Part shown: piece by piece, positions 2,524 through 32,000 of the stretch | How positions within the stretch are numbered: the stretch's first letter is position 1 | How the letters are laid out: every line of letters begins with the position of its first letter | NCBI GenBank assembly: GCA_026712925.1 | Contig: JAPOPJ010000240.1 | Span: 1-32,000, forward strand | Length of the DNA stretch: 32,000 bases | Source: Nitrososphaerota archaeon | Lineage (GTDB): Archaea > Thermoproteota > Nitrososphaeria > Nitrososphaerales > Nitrosopumilaceae | Reading direction: 5' to 3' | Made by a program: the position numbers and the translations under genes | The notes under the pieces: model-generated | Seen by the model: the letters and a program-made list of their open reading frames with translations, nothing else | Database searches by the model: none | Told to the model about the DNA's origin: nothing

Positions 2524-3417
2524 GTGAGGAAGAGACAGGGGCAGATATACATGCAAAGTCCTAATGCAAACTATTTGGACATCACGATACCAAAACCGTT
2601 TGTAAAGTGGGCAGGTGGAAAGCGGCAGCTAGTTTCCACACTAGCAGAGAACCTACCAAAGTCATTTGGTACATACTTTGAACCATTCCTAGGAGGCGGC
2701 GCATTGTTCTTTTACATCCTTACAAGACAGAATAAACAAAGATGCAACATCTCTGATCTTAACTCTGATCTCATCACCACATACATTACAATACGCGACA
2801 AAGTTGACGAGCTTGTATCTTCACTGAAAAACCACGAGAAGCATTACCAAAAAGATTCAAAGACATACTATTACGCAATTAGACAAAATAACCCCAAAGA
2901 TAGTATTGAAAGGGCATCAAGGTTGCTCTTTCTAAATAGAACTTGCTTTAATGGCCTGTACAGAGTAAATAGTAAAGGAATGTTCAATGTGCCGCTTGGA
3001 AGCTATACAAAACCCAAGATAGTCAACGAGGAGAATCTGCGCGCAGTAAATAATATCCTACAGTCCCATGACATATCAATTAGGTATCGCGATTTTGCAG
3101 ACATACTTGATGATGTCAGAGAAAACGACCTAGTATATTTTGATCCACCATATCAGCCCATCAGTGCCACAGCAAGCTTTACTAGTTATACATCCAACGA
3201 CTTTACAACTAATGACCTAGACAGACTCTACGTGCTCTGCCAAAAGCTAGATTCTAAAGGATGTAAAGTAATGCTCTCAAACTCGGACTCTGAAAAAGTC
3301 TTTGAGATGTTTTCACACAAACCGTGGAAGATATGCAAAGTGAGTGCAATGCGGGCAATTAATTCAGATTCTAAAAAACGCACTGGGCACTTTGAATTGC
3401 TTATAAAAAATTATTAA
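2524..3417 (+). CDS. dam: Dam-family (D12 class) N6-adenine DNA methyltransferase
   Basis: Motifs FVKWAGGKRQL, FEPFLGGGALFF (FxGxG), NRTCFNGLYRVN and VYFDPPYQP (DPPY). The GTG at 2524 lies about 26 nt after the TATA-like GGATATAG. ATG at 2551 is an alternative start. Confidence 0.85.
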   Translation: MRKRQGQIYMQSPNANYLDITIPKPFVKWAGGKRQLVSTLAENLPKSFGTYFEPFLGGGALFFYILTRQNKQRCNISDLNSDLITTYITIRDKVDELVSSLKNHEKHYQKDSKTYYYAIRQNNPKDSIERASRLLFLNRTCFNGLYRVNSKGMFNVPLGSYTKPKIVNEENLRAVNNILQSHDISIRYRDFADILDDVRENDLVYFDPPYQPISATASFTSYTSNDFTTNDLDRLYVLCQKLDSKGCKVMLSNSDSEKVFEMFSHKPWKICKVSAMRAINSDSKKRTGHFELLIKNY

Positions 3418-3419
3418 AA

Positions 3420-3493
3420 AGCCTCGAACGGGATCCGGACCCGCGACCTTTACCTTACCAAGGTAACGCTCTACCAGGCTGAGCTATCGAGGC
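3420..3493 (-). tRNA. tRNA-Thr (anticodon GGU), intronless
   Basis: Hand-folded cloverleaf from the reverse complement: GCCTCGA/TCGAGGC acceptor, GCTC..GAGC D stem, TTACC-TTGGTAA-GGTAA anticodon arm, GCGGG-TCCGGAT-CCCGT T arm. A TATA-like AATTATAAGG lies about 28 nt upstream. Confidence 0.85.
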
Positions 3494-3782
3494 ACAAGTT
3501 TGCCTCGTATGAAATCCTTATAATTCTTGGTTCTTGTATTATTCATGAATTATTTCTTAAATTCAGGGCTTTGTAATCTCTGATTATGATATCCATATCA
3601 AATGGCAAACAACGTCATAATTTCCTCATACCGTACAGGCGGGTTTTGGTCTGGTATAATGACTTTCTGCCGTGCCAGATGTAGATGAAATGATTTGACA
3701 TCTTTACACACATTACCAAAGTAATGAATTTGAGGCACACATGCACTAAACTGTTAAATCTTACACAGATTCTTATTCACTT

Positions 3783-3904
3783 GGAGGAGTAATCAAGCCT
3801 GGCCAAAGTAAGCACATCGTGCTTTTGGACATGCAGGACTTAAGATCAAATAATGGGTGATCCTGTCTCTCAGGAGTTCGCGGGTTCAAATCCCGCCTCC
3901 TCCA
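3783..3904 (+). tRNA. tRNA-Leu (anticodon UAA), class II. It carries a canonical 37/38 intron (about 3845-3859) and a probable second 22-nt intron in the D arm (about 3809-3830)
   Basis: GGAGGAG/CTCCTCC acceptor, GCGGG-TTCAAAT-CCCGC T arm, and CAGGA-CTTAAG[15 nt]A-TCCTG anticodon arm. Removing 3809-3830 yields the canonical D arm TA-ATC-AAGCCTGGCCAAA-GAT-G. The mature length is then 85 nt. Confidence 0.75.
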
Positions 3905-3905
3905 C

Positions 3906-4292
3906 TTATTTTGGATTTCTGATTCCCTTGGAGTTGAGAACCTCATATACATCAGGTAGTGAAAATACAAACCCGATATGGACACAATCTTTTTCCTCGC
4001 ATAGCTGACAGAACAGCTCGCCACCTTGGACTGCAACCTCGGCAATCCTGTTTTTTATATTATCCTTGAGTAGAATACGATCATCATCAACTGAAATCTT
4101 TTCAATCTTGGGAGCATATCTTGCAAAAGTTTTGTCTTTTTGCATCATCTCTTCGAGCATGTATGTGACATATCCTGAAAAACTATTGACACCCTTCATT
4201 GTGAGTGAGTCTTTGTTTTGCTGATAGACCTCTTGGAATTTATCATAGACTGTATCTGAAACTGTGATAGATTTGAATCCGGCTTTTGGCAA
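3906..4292 (-). CDS. Small putative DNA-binding protein with an N-terminal ribbon-helix-helix-like segment
   Basis: The N-terminus KSITVSDTVYDKFQEVY resembles a CopG/RHH beta-strand plus helix. The C-terminal part contains CQLCEEKDCVH. The fold assignment is by pattern only. Confidence 0.45.
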   Translation of the reverse strand: MPKAGFKSITVSDTVYDKFQEVYQQNKDSLTMKGVNSFSGYVTYMLEEMMQKDKTFARYAPKIEKISVDDDRILLKDNIKNRIAEVAVQGGELFCQLCEEKDCVHIGFVFSLPDVYEVLNSKGIRNPK

Positions 4293-6405: not shown

Positions 6406-6768
6406 CTAGTTGCCGACGAATAGGGCTATTAATATCGTACCTACCGTCACAGCTGCTATGGTTCCAGCTACTAGGCCGTTACTATTCTTGTTAGAGCCTT
6501 CTTGTGTGACTTTAACGCAAAAGATGTAACCAATCGCCTCAATAATTGTGAGTACGATGAAAGCATAGTGTCCACTCGGTGTCGGGTATGCCCACGGATA
6601 GTAAAAGTATCCTGCTGCAGTACCTCCAAAAGTAGCCAACCAGGCTGCTATGAAGGAGATTGTAATTACGCCAGTCATATTCTCGACACGTTTGCCGATC
6701 ATACGTTCTACGTCAGCACTAGATGCGCCACCTGCGCCACCTGAACCAAATCCTTTCGGGAGAGTCAT
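6406..6768 (-). CDS. amoX: AmoX (ORF38-like), a small membrane protein of the archaeal AMO cluster
   Basis: A 120-aa multi-TM protein encoded between amoA and amoC, the position conserved in Nitrosopumilales. It has a Gly-rich N-terminus and hydrophobic helices. Confidence 0.8.
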   Translation of the reverse strand: MTLPKGFGSGGAGGASSADVERMIGKRVENMTGVITISFIAAWLATFGGTAAGYFYYPWAYPTPSGHYAFIVLTIIEAIGYIFCVKVTQEGSNKNSNGLVAGTIAAVTVGTILIALFVGN

Positions 6769-6976
6769 CTGTGGTTATACTAAACAGAATACTTTTAAGT
6801 CTTTCCTAATCTGCCGGATTATTGCGCAATTCGACTGTAACTAGTCATATCTGACCCTTCTAGTTTGACAAACACACGCAAAGAAACCAGAATCTGAACA
6901 AAATCAGCCATAAAACAGATGTGTATGATAGCCAGCTGCCCCAGCACAAAGTGTATCACACAAGCCACAGACTAGA

Positions 6977-7013
6977 GGATATAAAATAAAAGAAAAAAAT
7001 GTGCAAAGTGCAC
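6977..7013 (-). terminator. Hairpin plus T-tract terminator after amoC
   Basis: The minus strand reads GTGC-ACTTT-GCAC followed by ATTTTTTTCTTTTATTTTAT, beginning 6 nt after the stop. Confidence 0.45.
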
Positions 7014-7018
7014 TTTTT

Positions 7019-7594
7019 CTATGGGATTGCTCTGCTGTACAGTTTACCCTCTAGGGCCATCTTGTACATTTCAGCAACATACGGATTCTCACCAGGTGTC
7101 TCTGCTCCTAGTTCTACCAGTCTAGCATATACTCGGACTACGTAGGCTAGGGCACCCATGAATGCAACAACTACACCCATGTTAAACATCCAGTGATTTG
7201 GTACTGCAAATATCTCCTCTACAAACCAAAAGTGCCACATCTCGTTAACTCCAATGGTGAACATGGTTGCCAGATAACCAAGAATGGTCATCTTTAATCC
7301 AGTATTCATCGAGTTGTTTGGACCTCTGAGAATAGGTACCTTTCTATCATACATTGCAACTGATGCCCAGCCAAGCGGCAATGCTACAAAGTGGGAGTAT
7401 AGCCACCAGTGTGCTGGGGTAAATGCGCTGTCTCTGATAGATGTCTGGTGCAGTGAGCCGTCAACAAAGTTGTCCACTTCGACTGACGCTGCAGTTGATC
7501 CCATAGCTATGACGATGAGCCAGATTTTCTTTAGTCTCTGAATCTCAACTTCTTTTGGGATTAATGCCGGCATTTGTGCCATAGGTGTACTCAT
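7019..7594 (-). CDS. amoC: Archaeal ammonia monooxygenase subunit C
   Basis: MAQMPALIPKEVEIQRLKKIWLIVI...HWWLYSHFVALPLGW...EMWHFWFVEE matches archaeal AmoC. The upstream ORF extension to 7627 is unlikely. The TATA-like CTTTATATTT at 7604-7613 favours ATG 7582 (MAQMP) over 7594. Confidence 0.92.
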   Translation of the reverse strand: MSTPMAQMPALIPKEVEIQRLKKIWLIVIAMGSTAASVEVDNFVDGSLHQTSIRDSAFTPAHWWLYSHFVALPLGWASVAMYDRKVPILRGPNNSMNTGLKMTILGYLATMFTIGVNEMWHFWFVEEIFAVPNHWMFNMGVVVAFMGALAYVVRVYARLVELGAETPGENPYVAEMYKMALEGKLYSRAIP

Positions 7595-7841
7595 GTGGAT
7601 TTGAAATATAAAGCATGAGCTTTTCAAACTAGAGATTTTGTATGAAAAAACAATAAAACTAGCCTGAAAACTGTAAAAAATTGGTTTTCTGCTAAGGATT
7701 TATCTTAAAAATCTATCCTGTTTCTATCGGATTTGGTTGTTCAACATCAATGTCGAATCACACCACCATAATTACTAGATCCGTCAATCAAGGTAAAACA
7801 TATAACGCTGTGTATTATCTTTCTGAATATTAGGGATAACT

Positions 7842-8411
7842 ATGGTCGAAAAAAAAATAATCGTATTAGGACTATCGGTTGTACTTGCCCTAGGTACGCT
7901 CGGCTTTAACTGGGTCGAGACAATCATGCCTACAGCAGAAGCACACGGTGTCCAGGCACAACTTCAGAGTCGTTTCATCAGAATCGAAGATGAAACCTTC
8001 AACAGACAATCCTTGCAGACTGGCGAGACCTTGACGCTTCAGGGAACACTAGTCAGTCTTGTAGAAAGAGATCTAAGAGGATGGATATCTATCTTCTCAG
8101 AATCCACAAATGCTGGAAACAGATGGGAGATGTTGGCTAGAGACCCACCAGGTAATGTCTTTGACATTCCAGGTAATACTCAGATTGCCTATTCACTGTC
8201 TGCAAAGGCACTAGAGGCAGGAGTATATCATGTGCACACACAACTTAACGTGGCAAGTGTAGGTCCAGGACTCGGTCCAGGTCAAACAGTAGTAGTTGAA
8301 GGTGAACCAATTATCAAAGAGATCCCATACACCAACATTGCATACCAGTCAATCATAATTGGTGTTGGATATGTGATCACCTTTGCAACAAGACCCTGGC
8401 AAGTAATCTAA
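7842..8411 (+). CDS. amoB: Archaeal ammonia monooxygenase subunit B
   Basis: 189 aa with a signal peptide then AEAHGVQAQLQSRFI...VYHVHTQLNV and a C-terminal TM segment. It is divergent from amoC. Confidence 0.93.
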   Translation: MVEKKIIVLGLSVVLALGTLGFNWVETIMPTAEAHGVQAQLQSRFIRIEDETFNRQSLQTGETLTLQGTLVSLVERDLRGWISIFSESTNAGNRWEMLARDPPGNVFDIPGNTQIAYSLSAKALEAGVYHVHTQLNVASVGPGLGPGQTVVVEGEPIIKEIPYTNIAYQSIIIGVGYVITFATRPWQVI

Positions 8412-8475
8412 CAACCCCCACCCCTTTCCTTTTCATTTTCCAATACTACAACTTCCCAAGTTTTATCTGTCATGA

Positions 8476-8805
8476 GTGCCAAGCAAATGTATGCTCAGAT
8501 TCAAGATAGCAAAGATGGATATCTTTCAAAGTTATTTTTTTGGTAGTGTTGAATTTCGTGGAGACACTTACAAGATTAACATTCAAAGTCAGAGAAGAGG
8601 AAAGGTACTCAAGCTGCCATTTGAAATGACATCAGGAAAGGAAAAAATGATAACCAGATTGACAGGCCCGGGCGACATCTTTGTAGAGGATTATCTTCCA
8701 TACTGCGGCGAGTCAGAATGGTTGGAGATAGACTCTGACGAGATTACTTTTTTTCTGGCAGACAATCAGGACAAGTTAGATACAGTAGAGATAATGGATA
8801 GATAG
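8476..8805 (+). CDS. Hypothetical protein (start uncertain: GTG 8476, ATG 8491 or ATG 8515)
   Basis: ORF with ordinary amino-acid composition. No motif was recognised. Confidence 0.4.
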   Translation: MPSKCMLRFKIAKMDIFQSYFFGSVEFRGDTYKINIQSQRRGKVLKLPFEMTSGKEKMITRLTGPGDIFVEDYLPYCGESEWLEIDSDEITFFLADNQDKLDTVEIMDR

Positions 8806-9175
8806 TGTTGTTTGGTGTCATGCATGTTAGCACATTTGGCATGGTGACGTAGATTGGTATGCTTTGGGTTTTTTGCACAAGCATTGCAAAAATCAGTTAT
8901 TGTATAATGCCGTACACTTTCAAAATCATTCATGTAATAGGCACCACTGTACCGGGCAGTGCATCCATACCAAAGCAAATCACATCCATGCCAGATCACA
9001 CCACATACACGGATATGACACCACACAGTATGTCAGTCAGAAAACAGTGCCTACTTGACGATCTCTACTGCTTAGCATCTACGGCTTAGCACCTACACTC
9101 ATACTCAAAAGCATGACTAGTCAGTACTAGACAAGATGAAAATGCATGCCAAAAGAAAGGGCTTTTATGTAATTC

Positions 9176-9730
9176 ATGAAAAAACACCACATGAGATGGC
9201 CCGGAACAAGCGATCCATATAAGAGAAAAAGGACCATCAGATTCCTCATAATCTCTGCAATCATTGGCATTTCAGTAGCAGCAGTATTTGCATTTACAAT
9301 GTCTGTCATAGACAGGGATAATCCACTCAAAGTATGCATCAATGACAGAAACACACCCTACAAGATTACAGCATCACTAGAATTGATTGTGGATGGCCAA
9401 CCGGCAGAAATTCCAGCTAGGATTGGTTTTGAAGAAAGAGATATACTAAATGAGGACTGCCAAAGAAGTCTGTACACATTGAATAATGATGGTACCATCT
9501 ATGCTGAATGGGAAGAAGCGTACCCCTTTGAGTTAGGACACTTTTTGTGGACATGGGATTTTCCGCTAAGAGACATGGATCAGTCAAAGTCCACAATATA
9601 CGTAAATGACGAAAAATCAGATGACTTTATACACCATCTACTACAAGACGGATACCACTACAAGGCCGTATTTACCAGCAAGGCATATGACACATCAAAG
9701 GATCAAGACTTTCTGCCACCTGAAAACTAG
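9176..9730 (+). CDS. Hypothetical membrane-anchored extracytoplasmic protein
   Basis: A basic N-terminus is followed by a single TM segment, FLIISAIIGISVAAVFAFTM. The rest is soluble with W/D/E-rich composition. Confidence 0.5.
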   Translation: MKKHHMRWPGTSDPYKRKRTIRFLIISAIIGISVAAVFAFTMSVIDRDNPLKVCINDRNTPYKITASLELIVDGQPAEIPARIGFEERDILNEDCQRSLYTLNNDGTIYAEWEEAYPFELGHFLWTWDFPLRDMDQSKSTIYVNDEKSDDFIHHLLQDGYHYKAVFTSKAYDTSKDQDFLPPEN

Positions 9731-19452: not shown

Positions 19453-21015
19453 ATGCAATCCTCAGAGATAAAAAGCGAGCACTTGCTTGATATTGCATCA
19501 TTTCTTGTAAGGCGCTGGTCTGAAAAAGATGGTGTAATAGTAGAATTTTCAGACAAGGTAGATACGAGAACCAGACTTGCAGAAAATAAAGTCATACTGA
19601 CACCGCTTGAAAAGATGGCAGGGAGTAGCTTTCAAAGATATAGACAATTCAGAACATCACTTTGGTACGAGGCCATGAGGATAAAATTTTGCAAAAAAAT
19701 ACTAAGCAACGACCACGCATTTGGGTTTATTCTCAATACAATGGAGACTAGAAGAGTAGAAAAACTTGGACGAAATATATGGAAAGGTATGGATGAAGAA
19801 ATTATATTCAACTATTCTTACATGTTAGTTTCAAGGCCACAGCTGCACTCGGTATATGGTAAAGCAAGAATTGTAGAAGCATTTTATCAGTATTTCATGT
19901 TTGGTGCATTCAAAGGCGAAATACAGTCAAGTCATTTTGAGAGAATAAAAAAAGCAGATGCCCTTGCAAAGAGAATAGTAGATGATGCAGTCCGATACGA
20001 ACATGGTACGGAATGGCTAGAAAAAAAAATTAGTGAGATAATAAAAATACTAGACATAGACTCGCTTCTCACAATCCCAGTCTCGCTTCCATTTATGAAG
20101 GCAGGTATGGCACTAACAGAGCAAGAGTTGCTAAAATTCCTCAAGATAGTCTCAAGGAATAAGGAAGGTGATTTTGGAAGAGTCGATCCAGGTGCAGTAC
20201 TAAATGGGAGTGACATATATGATGAGTACAGGGTTTTGCTTGATGAGAATCAGAAAAACGACAACAAGGGCATACTACCAGAGGCAGTAGGGGTAAAAGT
20301 GCCTGCTACAAGAAATGTTGATGAATCTGCAATATATGATATATCACTGATAAACAGTCTAAAGACTAAATTCAGAGAGTGGGCTATGGGATGGAAAGAA
20401 CAGCATGGTAGAAATGGTGATGAGTTTGATGAGGAGAGTCATATAGAAGGACACGAGCCGTTTTTTACTGACATAAAAAAATCAGTAAAAACCAGAATAG
20501 TCATTTTGCTTGACCACTCATCTAGTATTTCATCAGATGCACTAGAATACAAAAAGGCAACACTTGCATTATGTGAAGTGCTTGCATTTTTAAAAGTAAA
20601 ATTTGCAGTGTATGCATTTAGCACCGAGAACAGATCAACAGTATGCTGGCAGATAAAGCCAGATAATATAAAATGGAATTATCTGTCTGCAAAAAAACTT
20701 GCACAGATTGTTGCAAATGGCTCAACTCCGCTAGCAGAAGTGTATGATAAAATGTTTCCAATATTGCAATCAAAGAGGCCCGATGTATTTTTGACACTCA
20801 CAGACGGGGAGCCCTCAGACCCTAGTGCCGTGCGCACAATGACAAAAGCATTAAGAAGTATGGGGATAAAGATGGTAGCATTGGGACTTGGCCCAAACCC
20901 TGTAAGATCGACTGCCATTGCAGGGAACTTGGGCCGTCTAGGATATGAAAAGACACTTGCAGTAAGCAGGCTAAAAGACATTCCCAGTAAAGTGATTAGA
21001 ATTTTGGATGCATGA
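19453..21015 (+). CDS. von Willebrand factor A domain protein (NorD/CbbO-like partner of the AAA+ ATPase)
   Basis: C-terminal VWA domain with the MIDAS motif LLDHSSSIS (DxSxS) and TDGEPSD. Its ATG directly abuts the upstream TAG. Confidence 0.8.
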   Translation: MQSSEIKSEHLLDIASFLVRRWSEKDGVIVEFSDKVDTRTRLAENKVILTPLEKMAGSSFQRYRQFRTSLWYEAMRIKFCKKILSNDHAFGFILNTMETRRVEKLGRNIWKGMDEEIIFNYSYMLVSRPQLHSVYGKARIVEAFYQYFMFGAFKGEIQSSHFERIKKADALAKRIVDDAVRYEHGTEWLEKKISEIIKILDIDSLLTIPVSLPFMKAGMALTEQELLKFLKIVSRNKEGDFGRVDPGAVLNGSDIYDEYRVLLDENQKNDNKGILPEAVGVKVPATRNVDESAIYDISLINSLKTKFREWAMGWKEQHGRNGDEFDEESHIEGHEPFFTDIKKSVKTRIVILLDHSSSISSDALEYKKATLALCEVLAFLKVKFAVYAFSTENRSTVCWQIKPDNIKWNYLSAKKLAQIVANGSTPLAEVYDKMFPILQSKRPDVFLTLTDGEPSDPSAVRTMTKALRSMGIKMVALGLGPNPVRSTAIAGNLGRLGYEKTLAVSRLKDIPSKVIRILDA

Positions 21016-21175
21016 TTTCCAGCATGATAATATCACATCCTCCAAATTCATTATTTTGATAAACTTTTAATCAAATATTTGTATGAAATAACTGATAACC
21101 ACATTTACAATTAATCGCAATACATGTGATTTGATTTTTTAATTTTGGTGGATGTTTTTCTAATCTGTAAAATCT

Positions 21176-22615
21176 TTAAGCATTCATACCCATACCTTTA
21201 GAAAATATTGGATAAAGTAAATCCAAATCAGATTCAACAAGTAAGCTGAAATCAAGATTTTCTATCAAATGATCACAAATAATCTGTCTTGCATTAGATA
21301 GTGGTTTTTGTACAGTTGATACACCATGCAAATTTTGCTCTTTCTCAGATAGTCTAGATGCCACATAATTTGCCAAAACATCTATACGAATATTTTCATT
21401 TTTTGATATTTTTTGAAGATTTTTTTTAATCTGTGATATATCCCAGTTAGAATTTTCTAGAGATTTTTTAGTTAATTTGTGTGAGTCTTTTCCCAATAAT
21501 ACAAAATGTGCAAATTGACTGGCAATTCGCTCTTCTTCATCTTGAGAATTTAGTGATTTTGTAATATTTTCAGTAATTTGGCTTGTTCCTTGTGATATAT
21601 GATAAAATTCATAAAGTAAATTAAACATCCAGCGTGCTTCAGAATCTGTTTTTTGTGTGAGAATAATGATACTTCTACTCTTATCTATAAAGCAAGCCGC
21701 ATGAAAGGAAATAGTATCTAATACCAAAACAGGGATGCCCCAACTCCAAACATAACGTAAGATAGTATCAAATGTTATTTTTCCAAAATTTGAAAGAATC
21801 TGTTCTCTCACAATATATGGATCATCTGGAATATTCTTATTTGCTTTAATCTTTGTTGCTTTAGATACAAGTTGTGCTATATGATGAGCATAAATAGTAT
21901 GGATGCCAAGTTTTTTCTTGTTTGTGTTGCTAGAAATTTTGTATTTTACTTTGGTAAGAGGTGTTGTATTTAACACAAGAGGTTTTGATTTAAAAATTGA
22001 TTCTGGTTTTATTCCAAAAACCTTTCCTATATAATAAGAGGCCTGAAGACATAAAAGATCAGGTGAGATATCTTTATCATGAAATCGTGCTGCAAGTCTA
22101 GGCGGTAAGAGTCTGTGCATAATAAAGTCGGAATCAATACCCACAGAGTTCATTTTTTTGAAAAATTTTTTTAAAGAGAAATTAGCTATTGGAACTCCCA
22201 CATGTTTTTCTATTTTTAAGTTTAGAGCATCAGCAATTTCTTTAATTTTAGATATACTGGCAGATTCATATTCAGTTGCTTCATATCTTTGAATTTGCTG
22301 TTCTGGTAAGCTTACCATTTTTCCCAATTCTTTTTGGCTAAGATTTAGTGAAATTCTAGCTTTGATTAATGTGAAAGGTAATTCATCAATAGAATACAGT
22401 TCTGTTATTGGAATGTTGCCCAAAGTCAAATCTTCATATTCCTTTACTTCTCTTTGTAGATCTAAAAGTTGACTTTTTAATGCAGCTTTTTGTAGTGTTA
22501 GTAATGCACTAGTTCCACCTTTTACCTCATCAGTTTCAAGATCATTTAACGCGGTAGAAAATTTTGCTAGTTGTGATTTGGTAATCTTGTACTGCCTACT
22601 ATTTTTAATCATCAT
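21176..22615 (-). CDS. Fusion protein: coiled-coil N-terminus, XRE-type HTH and an ImmA/IrrE (DUF955, COG2856)-like domain with a degenerate HExxH (YEFYH)
   Basis: RQYKITKSQLAKFSTALNDLE..; HTH LSQKELGKMVSLPEQQIQRYEATEYESASISKIKEIADAL; GIPVLVLD..SIIILTQKTDSEARWMFNLLYEFYHI and EEERIASQFAHFVLLG (the E..AN.FA..LL pattern). The gene is very AT-rich. Confidence 0.65.
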   Translation of the reverse strand: MMIKNSRQYKITKSQLAKFSTALNDLETDEVKGGTSALLTLQKAALKSQLLDLQREVKEYEDLTLGNIPITELYSIDELPFTLIKARISLNLSQKELGKMVSLPEQQIQRYEATEYESASISKIKEIADALNLKIEKHVGVPIANFSLKKFFKKMNSVGIDSDFIMHRLLPPRLAARFHDKDISPDLLCLQASYYIGKVFGIKPESIFKSKPLVLNTTPLTKVKYKISSNTNKKKLGIHTIYAHHIAQLVSKATKIKANKNIPDDPYIVREQILSNFGKITFDTILRYVWSWGIPVLVLDTISFHAACFIDKSRSIIILTQKTDSEARWMFNLLYEFYHISQGTSQITENITKSLNSQDEEERIASQFAHFVLLGKDSHKLTKKSLENSNWDISQIKKNLQKISKNENIRIDVLANYVASRLSEKEQNLHGVSTVQKPLSNARQIICDHLIENLDFSLLVESDLDLLYPIFSKGMGMNA

Positions 22616-23032
22616 AATTCCCCCATATTGATCAAAACAATGCCTTTAATATTTCCAGATTCTCTATCATGTTAATAGAAATTCAGAATCATTTCACCAC
22701 TTCCACTGAGATACATTGAGAAAAATTCTCCATAATATTTTACTTTTTGAGATTTTCTTCCATTTTCAAAGCGATTTAAAACAGGGTCGGCTCGCCCACA
22801 AATTCGAGGCTTTTCCTAGTTTGTTTCTCTGATGTAGGTATAGTTTGTCTGAATATATCATTGGAATAATCTAGATTGCCCAGTGCTTACAGAATGAGTT
22901 TTGATGTAATATAGCATATGATCGTATTGACTCTGTTGGGAATGTTGAGGATTTACCAAAAGCATCGAATTTGTGGGAGAACCCAATGTCGATAACACCT
23001 TAATACTTAAAATCAATACATATCATGAACAT

Positions 23033-24439
23033 ATGGCCACACTACAGAGTATGGATATACGAAGCTTGAGAACCGAAATGGGAATCAAACAAATGGATCT
23101 TGCAAAAAAAGCCCAAGTGTCTCCATCTGATCTTAGCAAATGTGAAAGAGGACTAGTCCCACCAGACATGAGACTAATCACGGTAGTATCAAAAATCCTT
23201 TCAGTTAACCCAGATACGATACTAAAGGCTCACAAAATGATGCTGGATAATCCGATATCTGGAGAGGGATACGTAACGAAAAAGACTAGTGAATTTTTCA
23301 CAATTAAACGAATAAAAACTCCAAACAAGGAAGCAATTCCAATACTAGATCTTTTTTGCGGAACGGGTGGTTTTTCCAATGGGTTTGAGCAGACCGAAAA
23401 ATTCCAAGTAGTATCTGGATTAGACATGATGCCTGATAGAATCCATACGTTTTCGCGCAACCACCCTGCAGCAAAAGCCTACTGTCACGACATTACGAGA
23501 TTTTCAATTGATAAATTTAATGATGATGTTATACCGCAGGTGATTATTGGCGGTCCACCGTGTCAAGGATTTTCTTCAATTAGACCGTTTCGTTCCGTCA
23601 ACGAAAACGATCCTCGTAACAACCTTTTCACCAATTTTGCGTTCGCGGTAAAAAAACTGAGACCGGAGTGGTTTGTTTTGGAAAATGTGGTCGGGCTGGC
23701 AACACACCAAAAGGGCAAAACAGTCACCAAACTTCAAACCATGTTTGAGGAAATGGGATACACCGTTTCATGGTCCATACTAAACGCGGTACATTTTGGC
23801 TTGCCCCAGCGACGGGAACGATTTATCATGGTGGGAAATATTGACGGACATAATTTTGAATTTCCGATGCCAACACATCATTTCAATGGTAAAAGTATGG
23901 CAAAGAGCAACATATCATACACAAATGTCGTACAAAGATTGAAACCCGCAGTGACTGTAATGGATGCTATTGGAGATCTTCCAAATGTGGATGCTGGAGG
24001 GTCTGTTTCAAGATACAATTCGCCCCTCACACCATACCAGAAATCAATGAGACGTGATGGGATAGACCTTAAAATGCATTCTGCAACTGCACACACACAA
24101 CGGATGCTGAAAATAATCGCACATTCAGGCTCAAACAGACATTCAATCCCCAAGGAAATGATATCAAGTGGGTTTAGTTCGTCTTATAGTCGATTGGAAC
24201 CAGACGAGCCGAGTGTTACCATAACAGTCAACTTTGGATTTCCAGGATCCAACAAATGCATACACCCATACCAAAATCGAGCACTTACACCTAGAGAAGC
24301 TGCCCGGTTACAGGGATTTCACGACATGTATGAATTTGTCGGGACTAGATCTGAAATATGCAAGCAAATCGGCAACGCCGTTCCCCCCATACTAGGCAGG
24401 GTCATCGGAGAGGCACTGTTCAGACAGATGAGGGTATGA
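23033..24439 (+). CDS. DNA (cytosine-5) methyltransferase with an N-terminal XRE/C-protein-like HTH
   Basis: Motif I LDLFCGTGGFSNGF, IV GGPPCQGFS, VI FVLENVVGL, VIII LPQRRERF and X GNAVPPIL. The N-terminal HTH is IKQMDLAKKAQVSPSDLSKCERG. The ORF is open from GTG 22973, and the first ATG is at 23033. Confidence 0.88.
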   Translation: MATLQSMDIRSLRTEMGIKQMDLAKKAQVSPSDLSKCERGLVPPDMRLITVVSKILSVNPDTILKAHKMMLDNPISGEGYVTKKTSEFFTIKRIKTPNKEAIPILDLFCGTGGFSNGFEQTEKFQVVSGLDMMPDRIHTFSRNHPAAKAYCHDITRFSIDKFNDDVIPQVIIGGPPCQGFSSIRPFRSVNENDPRNNLFTNFAFAVKKLRPEWFVLENVVGLATHQKGKTVTKLQTMFEEMGYTVSWSILNAVHFGLPQRRERFIMVGNIDGHNFEFPMPTHHFNGKSMAKSNISYTNVVQRLKPAVTVMDAIGDLPNVDAGGSVSRYNSPLTPYQKSMRRDGIDLKMHSATAHTQRMLKIIAHSGSNRHSIPKEMISSGFSSSYSRLEPDEPSVTITVNFGFPGSNKCIHPYQNRALTPREAARLQGFHDMYEFVGTRSEICKQIGNAVPPILGRVIGEALFRQMRV

Positions 24440-24586
24440 TTACGGCTTGAAACATTCGTCAATGAATACAACTTTTATCTTATCCCACCCACACACTCAT
24501 CCGCACATACACACGGCTAATAGGTATCGAATTAGAGGATAAATCCTCAGGGTAAATTTTAATTTAAGTGAATTACAGGATAAATC

Positions 24587-28995: not shown

Positions 28996-29003
28996 TTTTT
29001 AAA
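28996..29003 (+). promoter_or_regulatory. TATA box (TTTTTAAA) about 26 nt upstream of the P-II ATG
   Basis: Sequence and spacing read directly. Confidence 0.4.
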
Positions 29004-29025
29004 CCATTACAAGATAGAATATTAA

Positions 29026-29367
29026 ATGAAACGGATCGAAGCAACTATCCAATTCAACAAAACAGGAGCTGTATCCAATGCGATCAACGACTTGGTAGGC
29101 GGCTTTACCATCCTAGAGGGAAACGGTAGAGGTTCTGGTGCAAGACAAACAATTAGGTCAAGCAGAGGAACAGGGACTTTTGTTGCAGAATACAACAAGG
29201 TAGCCATAGTCTCAACAATAGTCGATGATTCCAAGGCAGATGCCGTGATTGTAGCAATATCAGAGGCAGCATTTACTGGAAACGGAGGCGATGGCATTAT
29301 TGTGACTAGTAACATAGATGAAGTCACAAACATCGCGTCAAAAAAGAGTGGTACCGAAGCCCTCTAA
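29026..29367 (+). CDS. P-II (GlnB/GlnK family) signal-transduction protein with a divergent T-loop
   Basis: 113 aa: MKRIEATIQ...GFTILEGNGRGSG...VAIVSTIVDDSKADAVIVAISEAAFTGNGGDGIIVTSNIDEVTNI follows the P-II pattern. Confidence 0.8.
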   Translation: MKRIEATIQFNKTGAVSNAINDLVGGFTILEGNGRGSGARQTIRSSRGTGTFVAEYNKVAIVSTIVDDSKADAVIVAISEAAFTGNGGDGIIVTSNIDEVTNIASKKSGTEAL

Positions 29368-30133
29368 CAATTTTTTTTCAAATACTATCAGCGAAAACTA
29401 TACACACAAAATATACAAGATTATTCTCTTCATAATATGAGTAAATTTGTAGAACCATACCAAAAAATTTGAATAAATCATGGAATAAACCATCGTATGA
29501 AATCATCAATCACATTACTGTGAAACCAAATATACGACATACACTAAAAATATCATGACAAAAGATTCTGCATGCATGAATTTTGTGATAAAGTCATTCA
29601 ATGAAATAGTACGTTTAGAAAAAAAATCCCACACTACTTGTAGATTTGAAGCGAATGCTGTACGTACCCTGTCTAAATTGGAACCTAAACGATTCAGATG
29701 AGGCTTTACTACAACTCACAATCACACAATTGTTACAGATTCTAGATGTATCTTATCATCACATACGTCTGTTTTGTTGGAACTGGTGCCACTGATAGTA
29801 GTTTTGTGAAATATTAGTAAAGACTGAGTATAATTAATTTACCAGCATAGATGTAAAACTCACTGTGTGTGGCACTCACCCTATGCGGGCTTGGATAAAT
29901 CAGAATGAAAATACAAATCAATAGAATTGTTAGACACCACACCCATTAAAACAAAATTTTATCAAAAAACCATACTTGACTCATGGGAATGTATTTTGAA
30001 TACTAGTATTGGCAAATATAAAATAGGCACAGATATTTTTCCCAAGCCTCAGATAGCCACCACTAAACTAGATTCAAACCAAGTTGGTTTTTTAGATACT
30101 CTTCATACTTTAGATTATTTCTTCTTGGCTTTT

Positions 30134-30448
30134 TTATGTATCATCTTTAGAATTTTGCAGTACAATGTCAAGTATTTTCTCAGGACTGTTACATGTGATA
30201 TCAAACTCCTTTTGTATGAATTGGGTGATAGTACTGTCCTCTTTGGTTTTATCGCTATCTCCTTCTCTCTTTATAAACGGCGAAAAAAATCTCTTGTCAT
30301 TGGATGCGATATAGGTTTTACAATTAGGAATGTGGATTTCAGATTCAGGGTCATCGATTAATGTCTTGTGCGTATCTGCTCGGTAACTGTTCACATCCAT
30401 ACTCCTGCAATCACAAAACATACATAGATTCTTTTCATTTATGCGCAA
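30134..30448 (-). CDS. Hypothetical small protein (third gene of the AT-rich operon; start uncertain, TTG 30448 or ATG 30421)
   Basis: Charged, protein-like composition, in contrast to the overlapping plus-strand ORF. Contains CMFCDC...HIPNC. Co-directional with the two upstream genes. Confidence 0.35.
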   Translation of the reverse strand: MRINEKNLCMFCDCRSMDVNSYRADTHKTLIDDPESEIHIPNCKTYIASNDKRFFSPFIKREGDSDKTKEDSTITQFIQKEFDITCNSPEKILDIVLQNSKDDT

Positions 30449-30489
30449 AATGTAATGGATCGTGAACAGATACCTTATTTGTGCAAGTA

Positions 30490-31392
30490 TTAGTTTATCA
30501 TAGTCATGCTTATTTTTGTTCTTTTTTTCTGACTTTTTATGTTCAGCAAGTTGAAGTGGTAGTTTTTTATTTTTATATTTAGCAAATAACTCATCAAACT
30601 TTTTTTTACATGCAATTGAGAAGCAGGCGCATTCTTTGCATGCCAGCTCAATTGAGTTTTGGGCATATTATTGATTTCTTCCAAACCCTTTTTTAATTCA
30701 TTCATCTGTTCAACACAATATGATGCGGCATTTTCGGCGGACTGATCATACAACCACTTACCATTGTCGATTTCATAATTAATTATATCACGCAACTCAT
30801 CTAGTCTATTACTAGACAGTGGTACACCATATCGTTTCCGTTCCTGGTTAGTGTATTTAGCTGCATAGTACGATGCAAGAGACAATAATGCTTTTAATCT
30901 CATATGTAAACCTGTTTTCTCGTACTTTTTCCAATCAATGTCTACCACTGGAAGCACAGAATACAAATATATCAAGTACGCAATGTCTCCCGATTCATGG
31001 ATATATGGTAATTTCCGGATGTCACGTGGGTATTTCACTTTAGGATTATCTGACTTAACCCGATGAAAGTAATCATCTTGTAACCGTACGGCTTCAGCAT
31101 CTTCTGGCACTTCTTTTTTTAATTTTTTCATTACGGCATACACTATTTTTTGTGCTACTGCTACTGTGTACAAATCAACGTATTTTGAAAAAATCTTTTT
31201 AGTGCGATATTCACCTTTCACTTGTGGTAAAAGTATGCCACCTACATTAGGATATGTAATTTGATCTTTAATTACCTCTAATAGTAGAGACGATTCATCA
31301 TAAAATCTGTCTCGTATGGGTATTACTCCTTCATAGACGGTATTAAAAGTAGCTGATAACATTACATTTGTGTCAGGTATTATTACATTCAA
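30490..31392 (-). CDS. Hypothetical protein with a possible N-terminal PIN-like nuclease domain
   Basis: MNVIIPDTNVM (PIN beta1 DTN pattern), then DESSLLLE, ESGDIAYLIYL and VVDIDW as candidate acidic residues. The C-terminal about 140 aa is helical and unrecognised. Confidence 0.4.
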   Translation of the reverse strand: MNVIIPDTNVMLSATFNTVYEGVIPIRDRFYDESSLLLEVIKDQITYPNVGGILLPQVKGEYRTKKIFSKYVDLYTVAVAQKIVYAVMKKLKKEVPEDAEAVRLQDDYFHRVKSDNPKVKYPRDIRKLPYIHESGDIAYLIYLYSVLPVVDIDWKKYEKTGLHMRLKALLSLASYYAAKYTNQERKRYGVPLSSNRLDELRDIINYEIDNGKWLYDQSAENAASYCVEQMNELKKGLEEINNMPKTQLSWHAKNAPASQLHVKKSLMSYLLNIKIKNYHFNLLNIKSQKKRTKISMTMIN

Positions 31393-31407
31393 TGCTATGT
31401 AAAAAAA

Positions 31408-31932
31408 CTAAGTACTAGTATCTAAGCTTTTCATTAGGAAGCGATACTGCCATCGTGCTTTGTCTTTGTCAGGTTTGAATTTATTAAAATCTACTACCTT
31501 GTTATGGGTAAGATCAATCAAATCCGTTATGTTGTCATACACTCGGTCTTTTCTTTCCTCAGTAATGGACGTATCTTTAGTGATGTCGAGTATGTTTTTT
31601 ATCAAATTTGACATCTTAGGAAACACCTGAATAAAGGATGCTTTTGGTTTCCAATGTGAATTTTTTTGTTCTGGTTGAAATTGTCCATCTTTGTAGATAC
31701 TAACTTGTTTGGCTACAATATGAACACGATCTGATGTGAAATGAATAGTGGCATCTGGAAACTGCTTTCCACCAATTTCGATATTTTCAATATTAAATTG
31801 TGCGTTGACCAGAATTAGTCTTGCAACACCAATAGCCATGCCAATGGGAATCCCATTAAAATTTTCAGCAGTTAGCCATGTTATCCTGTATTCATTTAAT
31901 TGTTGTCGTAATTCGAAAAACTCTCGAAACAT
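31408..31932 (-). CDS. Hypothetical protein (first gene of the AT-rich operon)
   Basis: 174-aa ORF with no motif recognised. ATATAAAAA (31953-31961, minus strand) lies about 25 nt upstream of the ATG. The frame stays open upstream to the window edge, so a longer product cannot be excluded. Confidence 0.45.
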   Translation of the reverse strand: MFREFFELRQQLNEYRITWLTAENFNGIPIGMAIGVARLILVNAQFNIENIEIGGKQFPDATIHFTSDRVHIVAKQVSIYKDGQFQPEQKNSHWKPKASFIQVFPKMSNLIKNILDITKDTSITEERKDRVYDNITDLIDLTHNKVVDFNKFKPDKDKARWQYRFLMKSLDTST

Positions 31933-32000
31933 ATATTCCTCTCCATTAGATGTTTTTATATCCAGCGATGGTGGCTCTGCGGGTTGGTGTCGCGCTCGAG

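Follow-up and report, generated by a model that had tools for sequence, protein, structure and literature searches.

The window analysed here is a stretch of 32,000 nucleotides (positions 1 to 32,000 of contig JAPOPJ010000240.1, assembly GCA_026712925.1, forward strand) from a Nitrososphaerota archaeon of the Nitrosopumilaceae, and its end carries a cassette of two minus-strand genes, which we call A and B. We hold with high confidence the anatomy of this locus as a whole, namely that it contains two genes and that the second one, B, is both PIN-like and frameshifted. The open reading frame (ORF) call itself gives three co-directional ORFs on the minus strand, separated by intervals of 15 and 41 nt: one of 174 aa with an ATG start (31408-31932), one of 300 aa with a TTG start (30490-31392), and one of 104 aa, also with a TTG start (30134-30448), which corresponds to the tail of the 3' part of gene B. 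An original prediction made from the sequence had described these three packed ORFs as three genes, and as open frames they were recovered with the same coordinates and gaps when the ORFs were called again.

Five proteins were retrieved when the 300-aa ORF was used as a query for homologues, and two of them, P0003 (373 aa) and P0005 (361 aa), run past the end of this ORF into sequence matching the 104-aa ORF. Together with P0011 (389 aa) and the 379-aa B gene of L010, one of the loci fetched for comparison, they are colinear over both window ORFs without interruption. Six-frame translation shows that the 104-aa ORF belongs to a frame without stops for a long way ahead of its TTG; there it reads ...KKKFDELFAKYKNKKLPLQLAEHKKSE...HDYDKLILAQ..., as homologues do after ...SQL.VK. 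Two syntenic relatives, L003 and L005/L006, share 93.5% and 96.8% DNA identity with the window, respectively, and a three-way DNA alignment places the lesion in one homopolymer, which reads GTAAAAAAAA-G in the window, GTAAAAAAAATG in L003, and GTAAAAGAAAAG in L005/L006. From this alignment, the A8 run at 30600-30607 on the minus strand (GTAAAAAAAAG) is one base short compared with in-frame relatives, and a -1 shift there restores a B protein of 419 aa.

The 5' part of gene B (30601-31392, minus strand, TTG at 31392) keeps the original frame and encodes residues 1-264 of the repaired protein, including strand S1, D7, strand S2, E61, and most of a helical insertion. The 3' part (30134-30601, minus strand) lies in the -1 frame and encodes residues 265-419, including helix H4 with D299 and strand S4 with D366, followed by the stop codon (30136-30134); this frame is already open before the A-run is reached, and it is the one that is colinear with the four homologues named above. 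The last 41 residues of the 300-aa ORF (from SLMSYLL) match no homologue and represent out-of-frame translation, while the TTG of the 104-aa ORF is an internal leucine codon of the conserved frame. Thus, the 300-aa and 104-aa ORFs, previously counted as separate genes, are better read as one gene B with a 1-nt deletion at 30600-30607, as their homologues are fused. The TTG at 31392 is a better start for B than the deposited ATG, because the ten residues that it adds, MNVIIPDTNV, are kept in every full-length relative and hold the aspartate at the catalytic position (D7); IIPDTNV is also conserved in full-length relatives with an ATG start. This start and N-terminus had been proposed by the original prediction, and the motif is now seen to be conserved family-wide as the true first active-site motif. 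The deposited annotation is therefore corrected in that two of its ORFs represent one pseudogene, the start of B was placed too far downstream, and gene A passes the window edge.

The 3' part of gene A (31408-32000, minus strand) comprises 196 codons and the stop codon, with a frame that is open to the window edge and matches the A-family hidden Markov model (HMM) at E=1.7e-85. Since the frame is open to this edge and the deposited gene A protein, P0006, is 224 aa long and 100% identical, gene A should start at ~32082, about 80 nt outside the window, and the first gene of 174 aa in the original prediction is a portion of it. The TATA box proposed at 31953-31961 to drive the ORFs also falls inside gene A, where it encodes D-I-K-T, a stretch kept as protein in A paralogues ('[VI][KE]T[SD]'); in L003, another TATA-like element precedes the upstream ATG of gene A. 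Clear homologues of gene A were found by homology search, and the A-family proteins range from 160 to 224 aa. No match to gene A was found in Pfam, PHROG, NCBIfam, PADLOC, or PDB sequences.

Similarly, neither the three window ORFs nor the repaired full-length B gave a significant match in Pfam, PADLOC, PHROG, or NCBIfam, and none of the three ORFs matched PADLOC-DB v2 at E<=1, which agrees with the earlier suggestion that the module is uncatalogued. A profile search of 1.84 billion representative proteins yielded 77 relatives of B, most of which are 200-280 aa long and match only the N-terminal ~70 and the C-terminal 70-100 profile positions; they are versions of B with a shorter insert. Across 27 aligned relatives, four acidic positions stand out. 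Two of them, D292 and D318 in P0005 numbering, do not vary, and the other two, D7 and E61, show a conservation of at least 90%; the motifs that hold them are 'IPDTNV', 'V..E', 'D..ILAEA', and 'IAS.D.GFFSP'. The equivalents in repaired window B are D7, E61, D299, and D366, and over 70 relatives the conservation of the last two is likewise at least 90%. Of the acidic motifs named in the original prediction, MNVIIPDTNVM proved correct, but ESGDIAY and VVDIDW both belong to the helical insertion, which is variable; the conserved acidic residues three and four are those of HDYD-KLILAQ (D299) and YIASND (D366), within the frame of the 104-aa ORF.

A first AlphaFold run with 11 sequences gave a predicted local distance difference test (pLDDT) score of 51.8 and an unusable model, and AlphaFold2 with 70 sequences modelled repaired B at a pLDDT of 87.4 and a predicted template modelling (pTM) score of 0.86. 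The latter model starts with strand S1 (residues 2-6), two helices, strand S2 (50-54), and helix H3 (56-94), continues with an all-helical block to about residue 291, and ends with helix H4 (297-319), a low-confidence loop, strand S4 (359-363), a helix (388-397), strand S5 (399-402), and a final helix. According to Matelska et al. (2017, PMC5499597), the PIN-like core consists of five strands and five helices, the strands being parallel and the whole forming a Rossmann-like alpha/beta/alpha sandwich, with near-invariant acidic residues after S1, at the N-terminus of the crossover helix H4, and after S4, and with a fourth usually after S2. The residues of B occupy these positions, since D7 follows S1, E61 follows S2, D299 is located at the start of H4, and D366 follows S4. 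The helical insertion lies between S2/H3 and H4 and measures ~100 aa in most relatives and ~230 aa in the clade of the window.

PIN families were the only recurrent HMM matches of individual members, in the right register, in two libraries and with the insertion removed or kept. They include PIN_3 (five members, best E 0.0048, profile positions 1-21, covering the N-terminal motif), PIN_4 (five members, best E 0.0037, profile positions 53-116, covering the E/D/D region), and TIGR00305, described as 'toxin component, PIN family' (four members, best E 0.0036); NYN (best E 0.0083) and DUF4411 (best E 0.18) were each matched by one member. None of these was a significant profile match to a PIN-clan family, as the scores were 12-15 bits where printed and the gathering cut-offs are 22-27 bits. 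As well, hhalign of the core profile against one PIN_6 protein aligned the first motif only, Foldseek searches of PDB and BFVD gave nothing significant for the B model, and no PIN match was obtained among PDB sequences with the whole-family profile or the insertion-deleted core. On the basis of motifs and modelled topology rather than a significant database match, B is very probably PIN-like. The original prediction of a PIN-like protein is accordingly kept, in view of the acidic quartet and the model, the helical part being an insertion that interrupts the domain.

A cysteine cluster (CMFCDC...C) is encoded at 30320-30415, corresponding to residues 327-358 of repaired B, and is present only in the sub-clade of the window, L003, and L005. 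It accounts for the description of the 104-aa ORF as 'Cys-containing' in the original prediction. The model has a single loop of low confidence (block-mean pLDDT 49-59, residues 311-350), which contains the cluster, and a small insertion that binds metal is one possible reading of it. In addition, a 144-aa ORF (29927-30361, plus strand) runs antisense to the 3' part of B and was judged to be a by-product of the AT-rich antisense strand.

The position of the lesion bears directly on the fate of the window copy. D7 (31374-31372) and E61 (31212-31210) are encoded upstream of the A-run, and D299 (30499-30497) and D366 (30298-30296) are encoded downstream of it in the other frame. The acidic quartet is thereby split across two frames, so neither ORF product can form the four-residue site. 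Judged from the sequence, the window copy of B is most likely inactive, provided that the missing base is not an assembly artefact and that slippage does not make up for it.

According to HMM searches of every fetched locus, each of the 14 distinct places that hold a full-length B, frameshifted copies included, has an A-family gene immediately upstream of it. The places counted were the window, L001/2, L003/4, L005-9, L010-12, L015/16/19, L017/18, L020-L025 singly, L027, and L028, and the paired loci include Nitrosopumilus metagenome-assembled genomes (MAGs) whose B is only ~25% identical to window B. Co-occurrence, which had been proposed as a check on the original prediction, thus holds for A and B. 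The spacing between the two genes, where measured, ranges from a 14-nt overlap to a gap of ~40 nt, with L019 as the exception. In this Nitrosopumilus MAG locus, ~930 bp with a long ORF are inserted between A and B (3072-3997); by eye, the inserted ORF looks like an IS1595/ISXO2-type transposase, and the insertion would be another route of cassette disruption. Moreover, the 1968-bp contig L017, with a GC content of 64%, also carries the A-B pair, so the family extends beyond marine ammonia-oxidising archaea of low GC content.

The genomic position of the module is variable. The pair is found beside the P-II gene in the window and L003-L007, and between prefoldin/ERCC4 and DAO oxidoreductase genes in L001 and L010, while the module of L013/14 is located between MOFRL and Fe-ADH. 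Transposase or integrase genes adjoin the pair in L003 (rve) and L015 (IS240), and the source MAG of the window carries a second copy (P0004/P0007). The sequence past position 32000 is represented by the syntenic relatives L003 and L005. In the former (6439-9233), the rve-type integrase/transposase of 385 aa is located directly upstream of gene A and is itself preceded by an N6/N4 DNA methylase gene and a 42-aa fragment of a ScaI restriction enzyme.

Lesions of several kinds were identified in the family, and every close relative of the window has lesions of its own. Independent one-nucleotide deletions are located in an A-run of B in the window (30600-30607), in an A-run of B in L022, in a T-run of B in L003/L004, and in both a T-run of A and an A-run of B in L005-L009, which are five contigs from five samples. 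Larger losses are also present. In L001 (11947-12001) and L010 (10585-10640), a second A paralogue after B is followed by only 13-15 codons of B (VIIPDTNV...); in L013/14, A is followed by a 38-codon stump of B (L013 6957-7070); and L026 possesses the 3' half of B only. The stumps of L001, L010, and L013 follow an intact A and mark modules, tandem or solo, that have lost B by deletion. Upstream of the 3'-only B of L026 (3300-4000), a segment of ~90 nt is present twice, which may be a repeat element that truncated B. Among the fetched loci, no intact B was found without A, and A often survives without B. Such an asymmetry, which is indirect evidence only, is what would be expected if B were harmful alone and A protective.

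Selection on the two genes was assessed with simple Nei-Gojobori estimates of omega, which are approximate for such AT-rich genes. In the short-form Nitrosopumilus clade, omega is 0.04-0.15 for A and B (~0.1-0.15 for B), indicating strong purifying selection, and therefore the intact pair is regarded as functional. In the long-form clade, which includes the window copy, a comparison of intact B between L001 (10001-11083) and L010 (8579-9715) gave an omega of ~1.2 over core and insert, and gene A gave ~0.37-0.39. None of 5000 simulations with an equal number of random substitutions kept the long-form B ORF open, a result that favours rapid and perhaps diversifying evolution of the protein over neutrality. 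Between the window and L003/L005, the omega of B is ~1.0 and that of neighbouring genes 0-0.32 (combined Fisher test, p=8e-11). This value was considered as a separate proof of pseudogenisation of the window copy and was dropped, because intact long-form B also reaches ~1.2.

The explanation we favour, with a probability of roughly 60%, is that the window holds a decaying copy of a VapBC-like, previously uncatalogued two-gene module, including a toxin-antitoxin-like mechanism. B would be a PIN-like nuclease that depends on Mg/Mn and most likely cleaves RNA, with a catalytic domain split by the helical insertion, and this insertion may give target specificity or regulation. A would be translated just upstream, across a gap of 2-40 nt or a short overlap, as the obligate partner of B, most plausibly an antidote or inhibitor that binds B, and the pair would consequently act as a VapBC-type toxin-antitoxin or abortive-infection module. 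Such a cassette would spread horizontally and decay when not maintained, and in the window copy the toxin half would have been knocked out by the 1-nt deletion, with A still an open ORF. The nuclease activity of B, its toxicity, its binding and neutralisation by A, and the role of the insertion are inferred. With regard to the original prediction of a toxin-antitoxin, abortive-infection, or defence cassette, the guess was correct as to kind, and the behaviour of the cassette is that of a toxin-antitoxin or conflict module not yet catalogued, while the three-gene anatomy was wrong.

Several observations weigh against this explanation. No HMM match of B reached a curated threshold, the best E-values being 0.004-0.1, and hhalign of the core profile against a verified VapC (3TND) aligned the first motif only. 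At two to three times the size of VapC, B is large for such a toxin, and its partner A is 160-224 aa long; neither the family profile nor any of ten A-family proteins gave a DNA-binding or antitoxin domain (AbrB, ribbon-helix-helix (RHH), PHD/YefM, or helix-turn-helix (HTH)). In addition, the frameshift allele of the window comes from a single assembly, and no second copy of its A-run turned up when Joint Genome Institute (JGI) metagenomes were scanned for the exact pattern. A bolder version of the same idea, which we put forward tentatively and consider unlikely, is that A-B is an uncharacterised conflict system of ammonia-oxidising archaea, serving antiviral abortive infection or addiction. 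The insertion would then be a rapidly evolving module for specificity or sensing, shaped by diversifying selection, in line with the omega of ~1.2 of long-form B genes with an intact ORF; A would be a novel antidote with no known fold, and the homopolymers in B would be mutational on/off switches.

It is unlikely, in our estimation, that B is functional in the window, which would require the missing A to be an assembly or consensus error or to be compensated by slippage of RNA polymerase or ribosomes on the A8 run. In the case of slippage, the run (A AAA AAA G, a -1 slippery context) would allow some full-length protein to be made, as a low-level or phase-variable switch. Such a reading is in keeping with the single lesion, on either side of which the frames are otherwise open (264 and 155 codons), with the restoration of VKKKF by one added A or a -1 shift in the homopolymer of eight A's, compared with VKKMF and VKEKF in relatives, and with an allele known from one assembly only. 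The location of the family's frameshifts, all five of which lie in or beside A- or T-runs, is also compatible with it, but their positions vary by lineage and none is conserved, which speaks against a programmed site. Moreover, lesions of the L005 type on five contigs from five samples show that such lesions are real in this family, B has elsewhere also been lost through deletion and insertion, and efficient slippage usually needs runs of at least nine or a stimulatory structure. Programmed frameshifting was rejected as the principal explanation in view of the differing frameshift sites among lineages.

Another possibility, to which we give a distinctly low probability, is that A and B are a lineage-specific housekeeping nuclease for RNA or DNA processing and its cofactor, comparable to a flap endonuclease (FEN) with its helical arch. 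Such a role would fit the low omega of both genes (0.04-0.15) in free-living Nitrosopumilus, a sign of strong purifying selection, and FEN-type 5' nucleases also carry a helical insertion in a PIN-like core; FEN-1 (1b43) and a plastid exonuclease were among the non-significant Foldseek matches (E=3.6-4.5). However, a housekeeping function is at odds with the variable genomic position, the several copies per genome, and the adjacent transposases, as well as with frequent inactivation in related lineages and with the small number of relatives, only 77 among 1.84 billion representatives, that the profile search found. Besides, no helix-three-turn-helix (H3TH) motif was detected in B, and it has only four conserved acidic residues, not up to nine as in some PIN-like nucleases (PMC5499597).

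A true three-gene operon, with the 300-aa and 104-aa products as separate proteins, is very improbable: the ORFs are present at the described spacing of 15 and 41 nt and a TTG could start either of the two, but every intact homologue is one polypeptide over both ORFs, the active-site quartet is divided between them, the 41 terminal residues of the 300-aa ORF are an out-of-frame stretch that matches no homologue, and the TTG taken as the start of the 104-aa ORF falls inside the conserved frame. The reading of the ORFs as chance open frames in AT-rich DNA that is non-coding or junk, which the original prediction had named as its own refuting case and which would accord with the lack of database family matches, can be dismissed in view of homologue E-values down to 1e-187, the 77 relatives found by profile search, the confident AlphaFold model, and the purifying selection on relatives.

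The surroundings of the cassette conform to the original description in several respects. The block adjoins a P-II gene (29026-29367; Pfam P-II, 38.7 bits) and is mildly AT-rich, with a GC content of 0.344-0.356 over 29001-32000 compared with ~0.39-0.43 across most of the window, and the ~770 bp described as lacking a convincing gene correspond to a spacer of 766 bp between B and P-II (29368-30133, no strand assigned). This AT-rich spacer was searched for ORFs, for Rfam families or any other RNA, and for what might be left of gene A or B, including a decayed second A gene; no ORF in it is convincing, and the other searches found nothing. The spacer is conserved in L003 and L005 as well as the genes are. 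A second and more AT-rich island (21000-24440, GC 0.29-0.33) possesses a gene encoding a 479-aa HTH_3 protein (21176-22615, minus strand) and, divergent from it, a gene encoding an HTH and C5 cytosine DNA methyltransferase (22973-24439, plus strand). This pair is also present in L003 and L004, and the island is probably a restriction-modification or orphan-methylase island.

Among known systems, VapBC shares several properties with A-B, including the pattern of the acidic quartet (after S1, after S2, at the N-terminus of H4, and after S4), a partner gene immediately upstream with a small gap or overlap, and multiple copies with a mobile, patchy distribution in which the toxin is often lost and the partner kept. 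Unlike VapC, which has ~130 aa, B measures 245-419 aa, as a result of the helical insertion of 100-230 aa that splits the domain, and A (160-224 aa) lacks a recognisable AbrB, RHH, PHD, or HTH domain; furthermore, the sizes exceed those of VapBC components two- to threefold, and B matches no PIN HMM at threshold. The PIN_3/TIGR00305/COG1569 and PIN_4 families (PF13470, PF13638) resemble B in the style of their motifs ('DTNV(l/i)', 'D..ILA.A', 'IAS.D..F'), but they are compact single domains without an insertion. As for the FEN-like 5' nucleases, they are similar to B in having a PIN-like core with a helical insertion and a comparable size of ~340 aa, whereas no H3TH or arch homology was detected in B, which has only four conserved acidic residues and gave Foldseek matches that were not significant (E=3.6-4.5), and A-B behaves genomically as an accessory module.

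A literature search combining PIN domain, Nitrosopumilus, and toxin-antitoxin found no paper, and no sequence relative of the A-B family was found among solved structures. B represents a new family in the PIN-like superfamily and A a new partner protein, which so far are found almost only in ammonia-oxidising archaea. These archaea are abundant and ecologically important, and to our knowledge few of their toxin-antitoxin or defence systems have been characterised. Uncharacterised PIN modules are, as far as we know, common. Because the window copy has most likely decayed beyond function, it is the family that deserves attention, more than this particular copy, and the A-B family is well defined, with clear active-site residues, existing intact members, and signs of conflict-type evolution.

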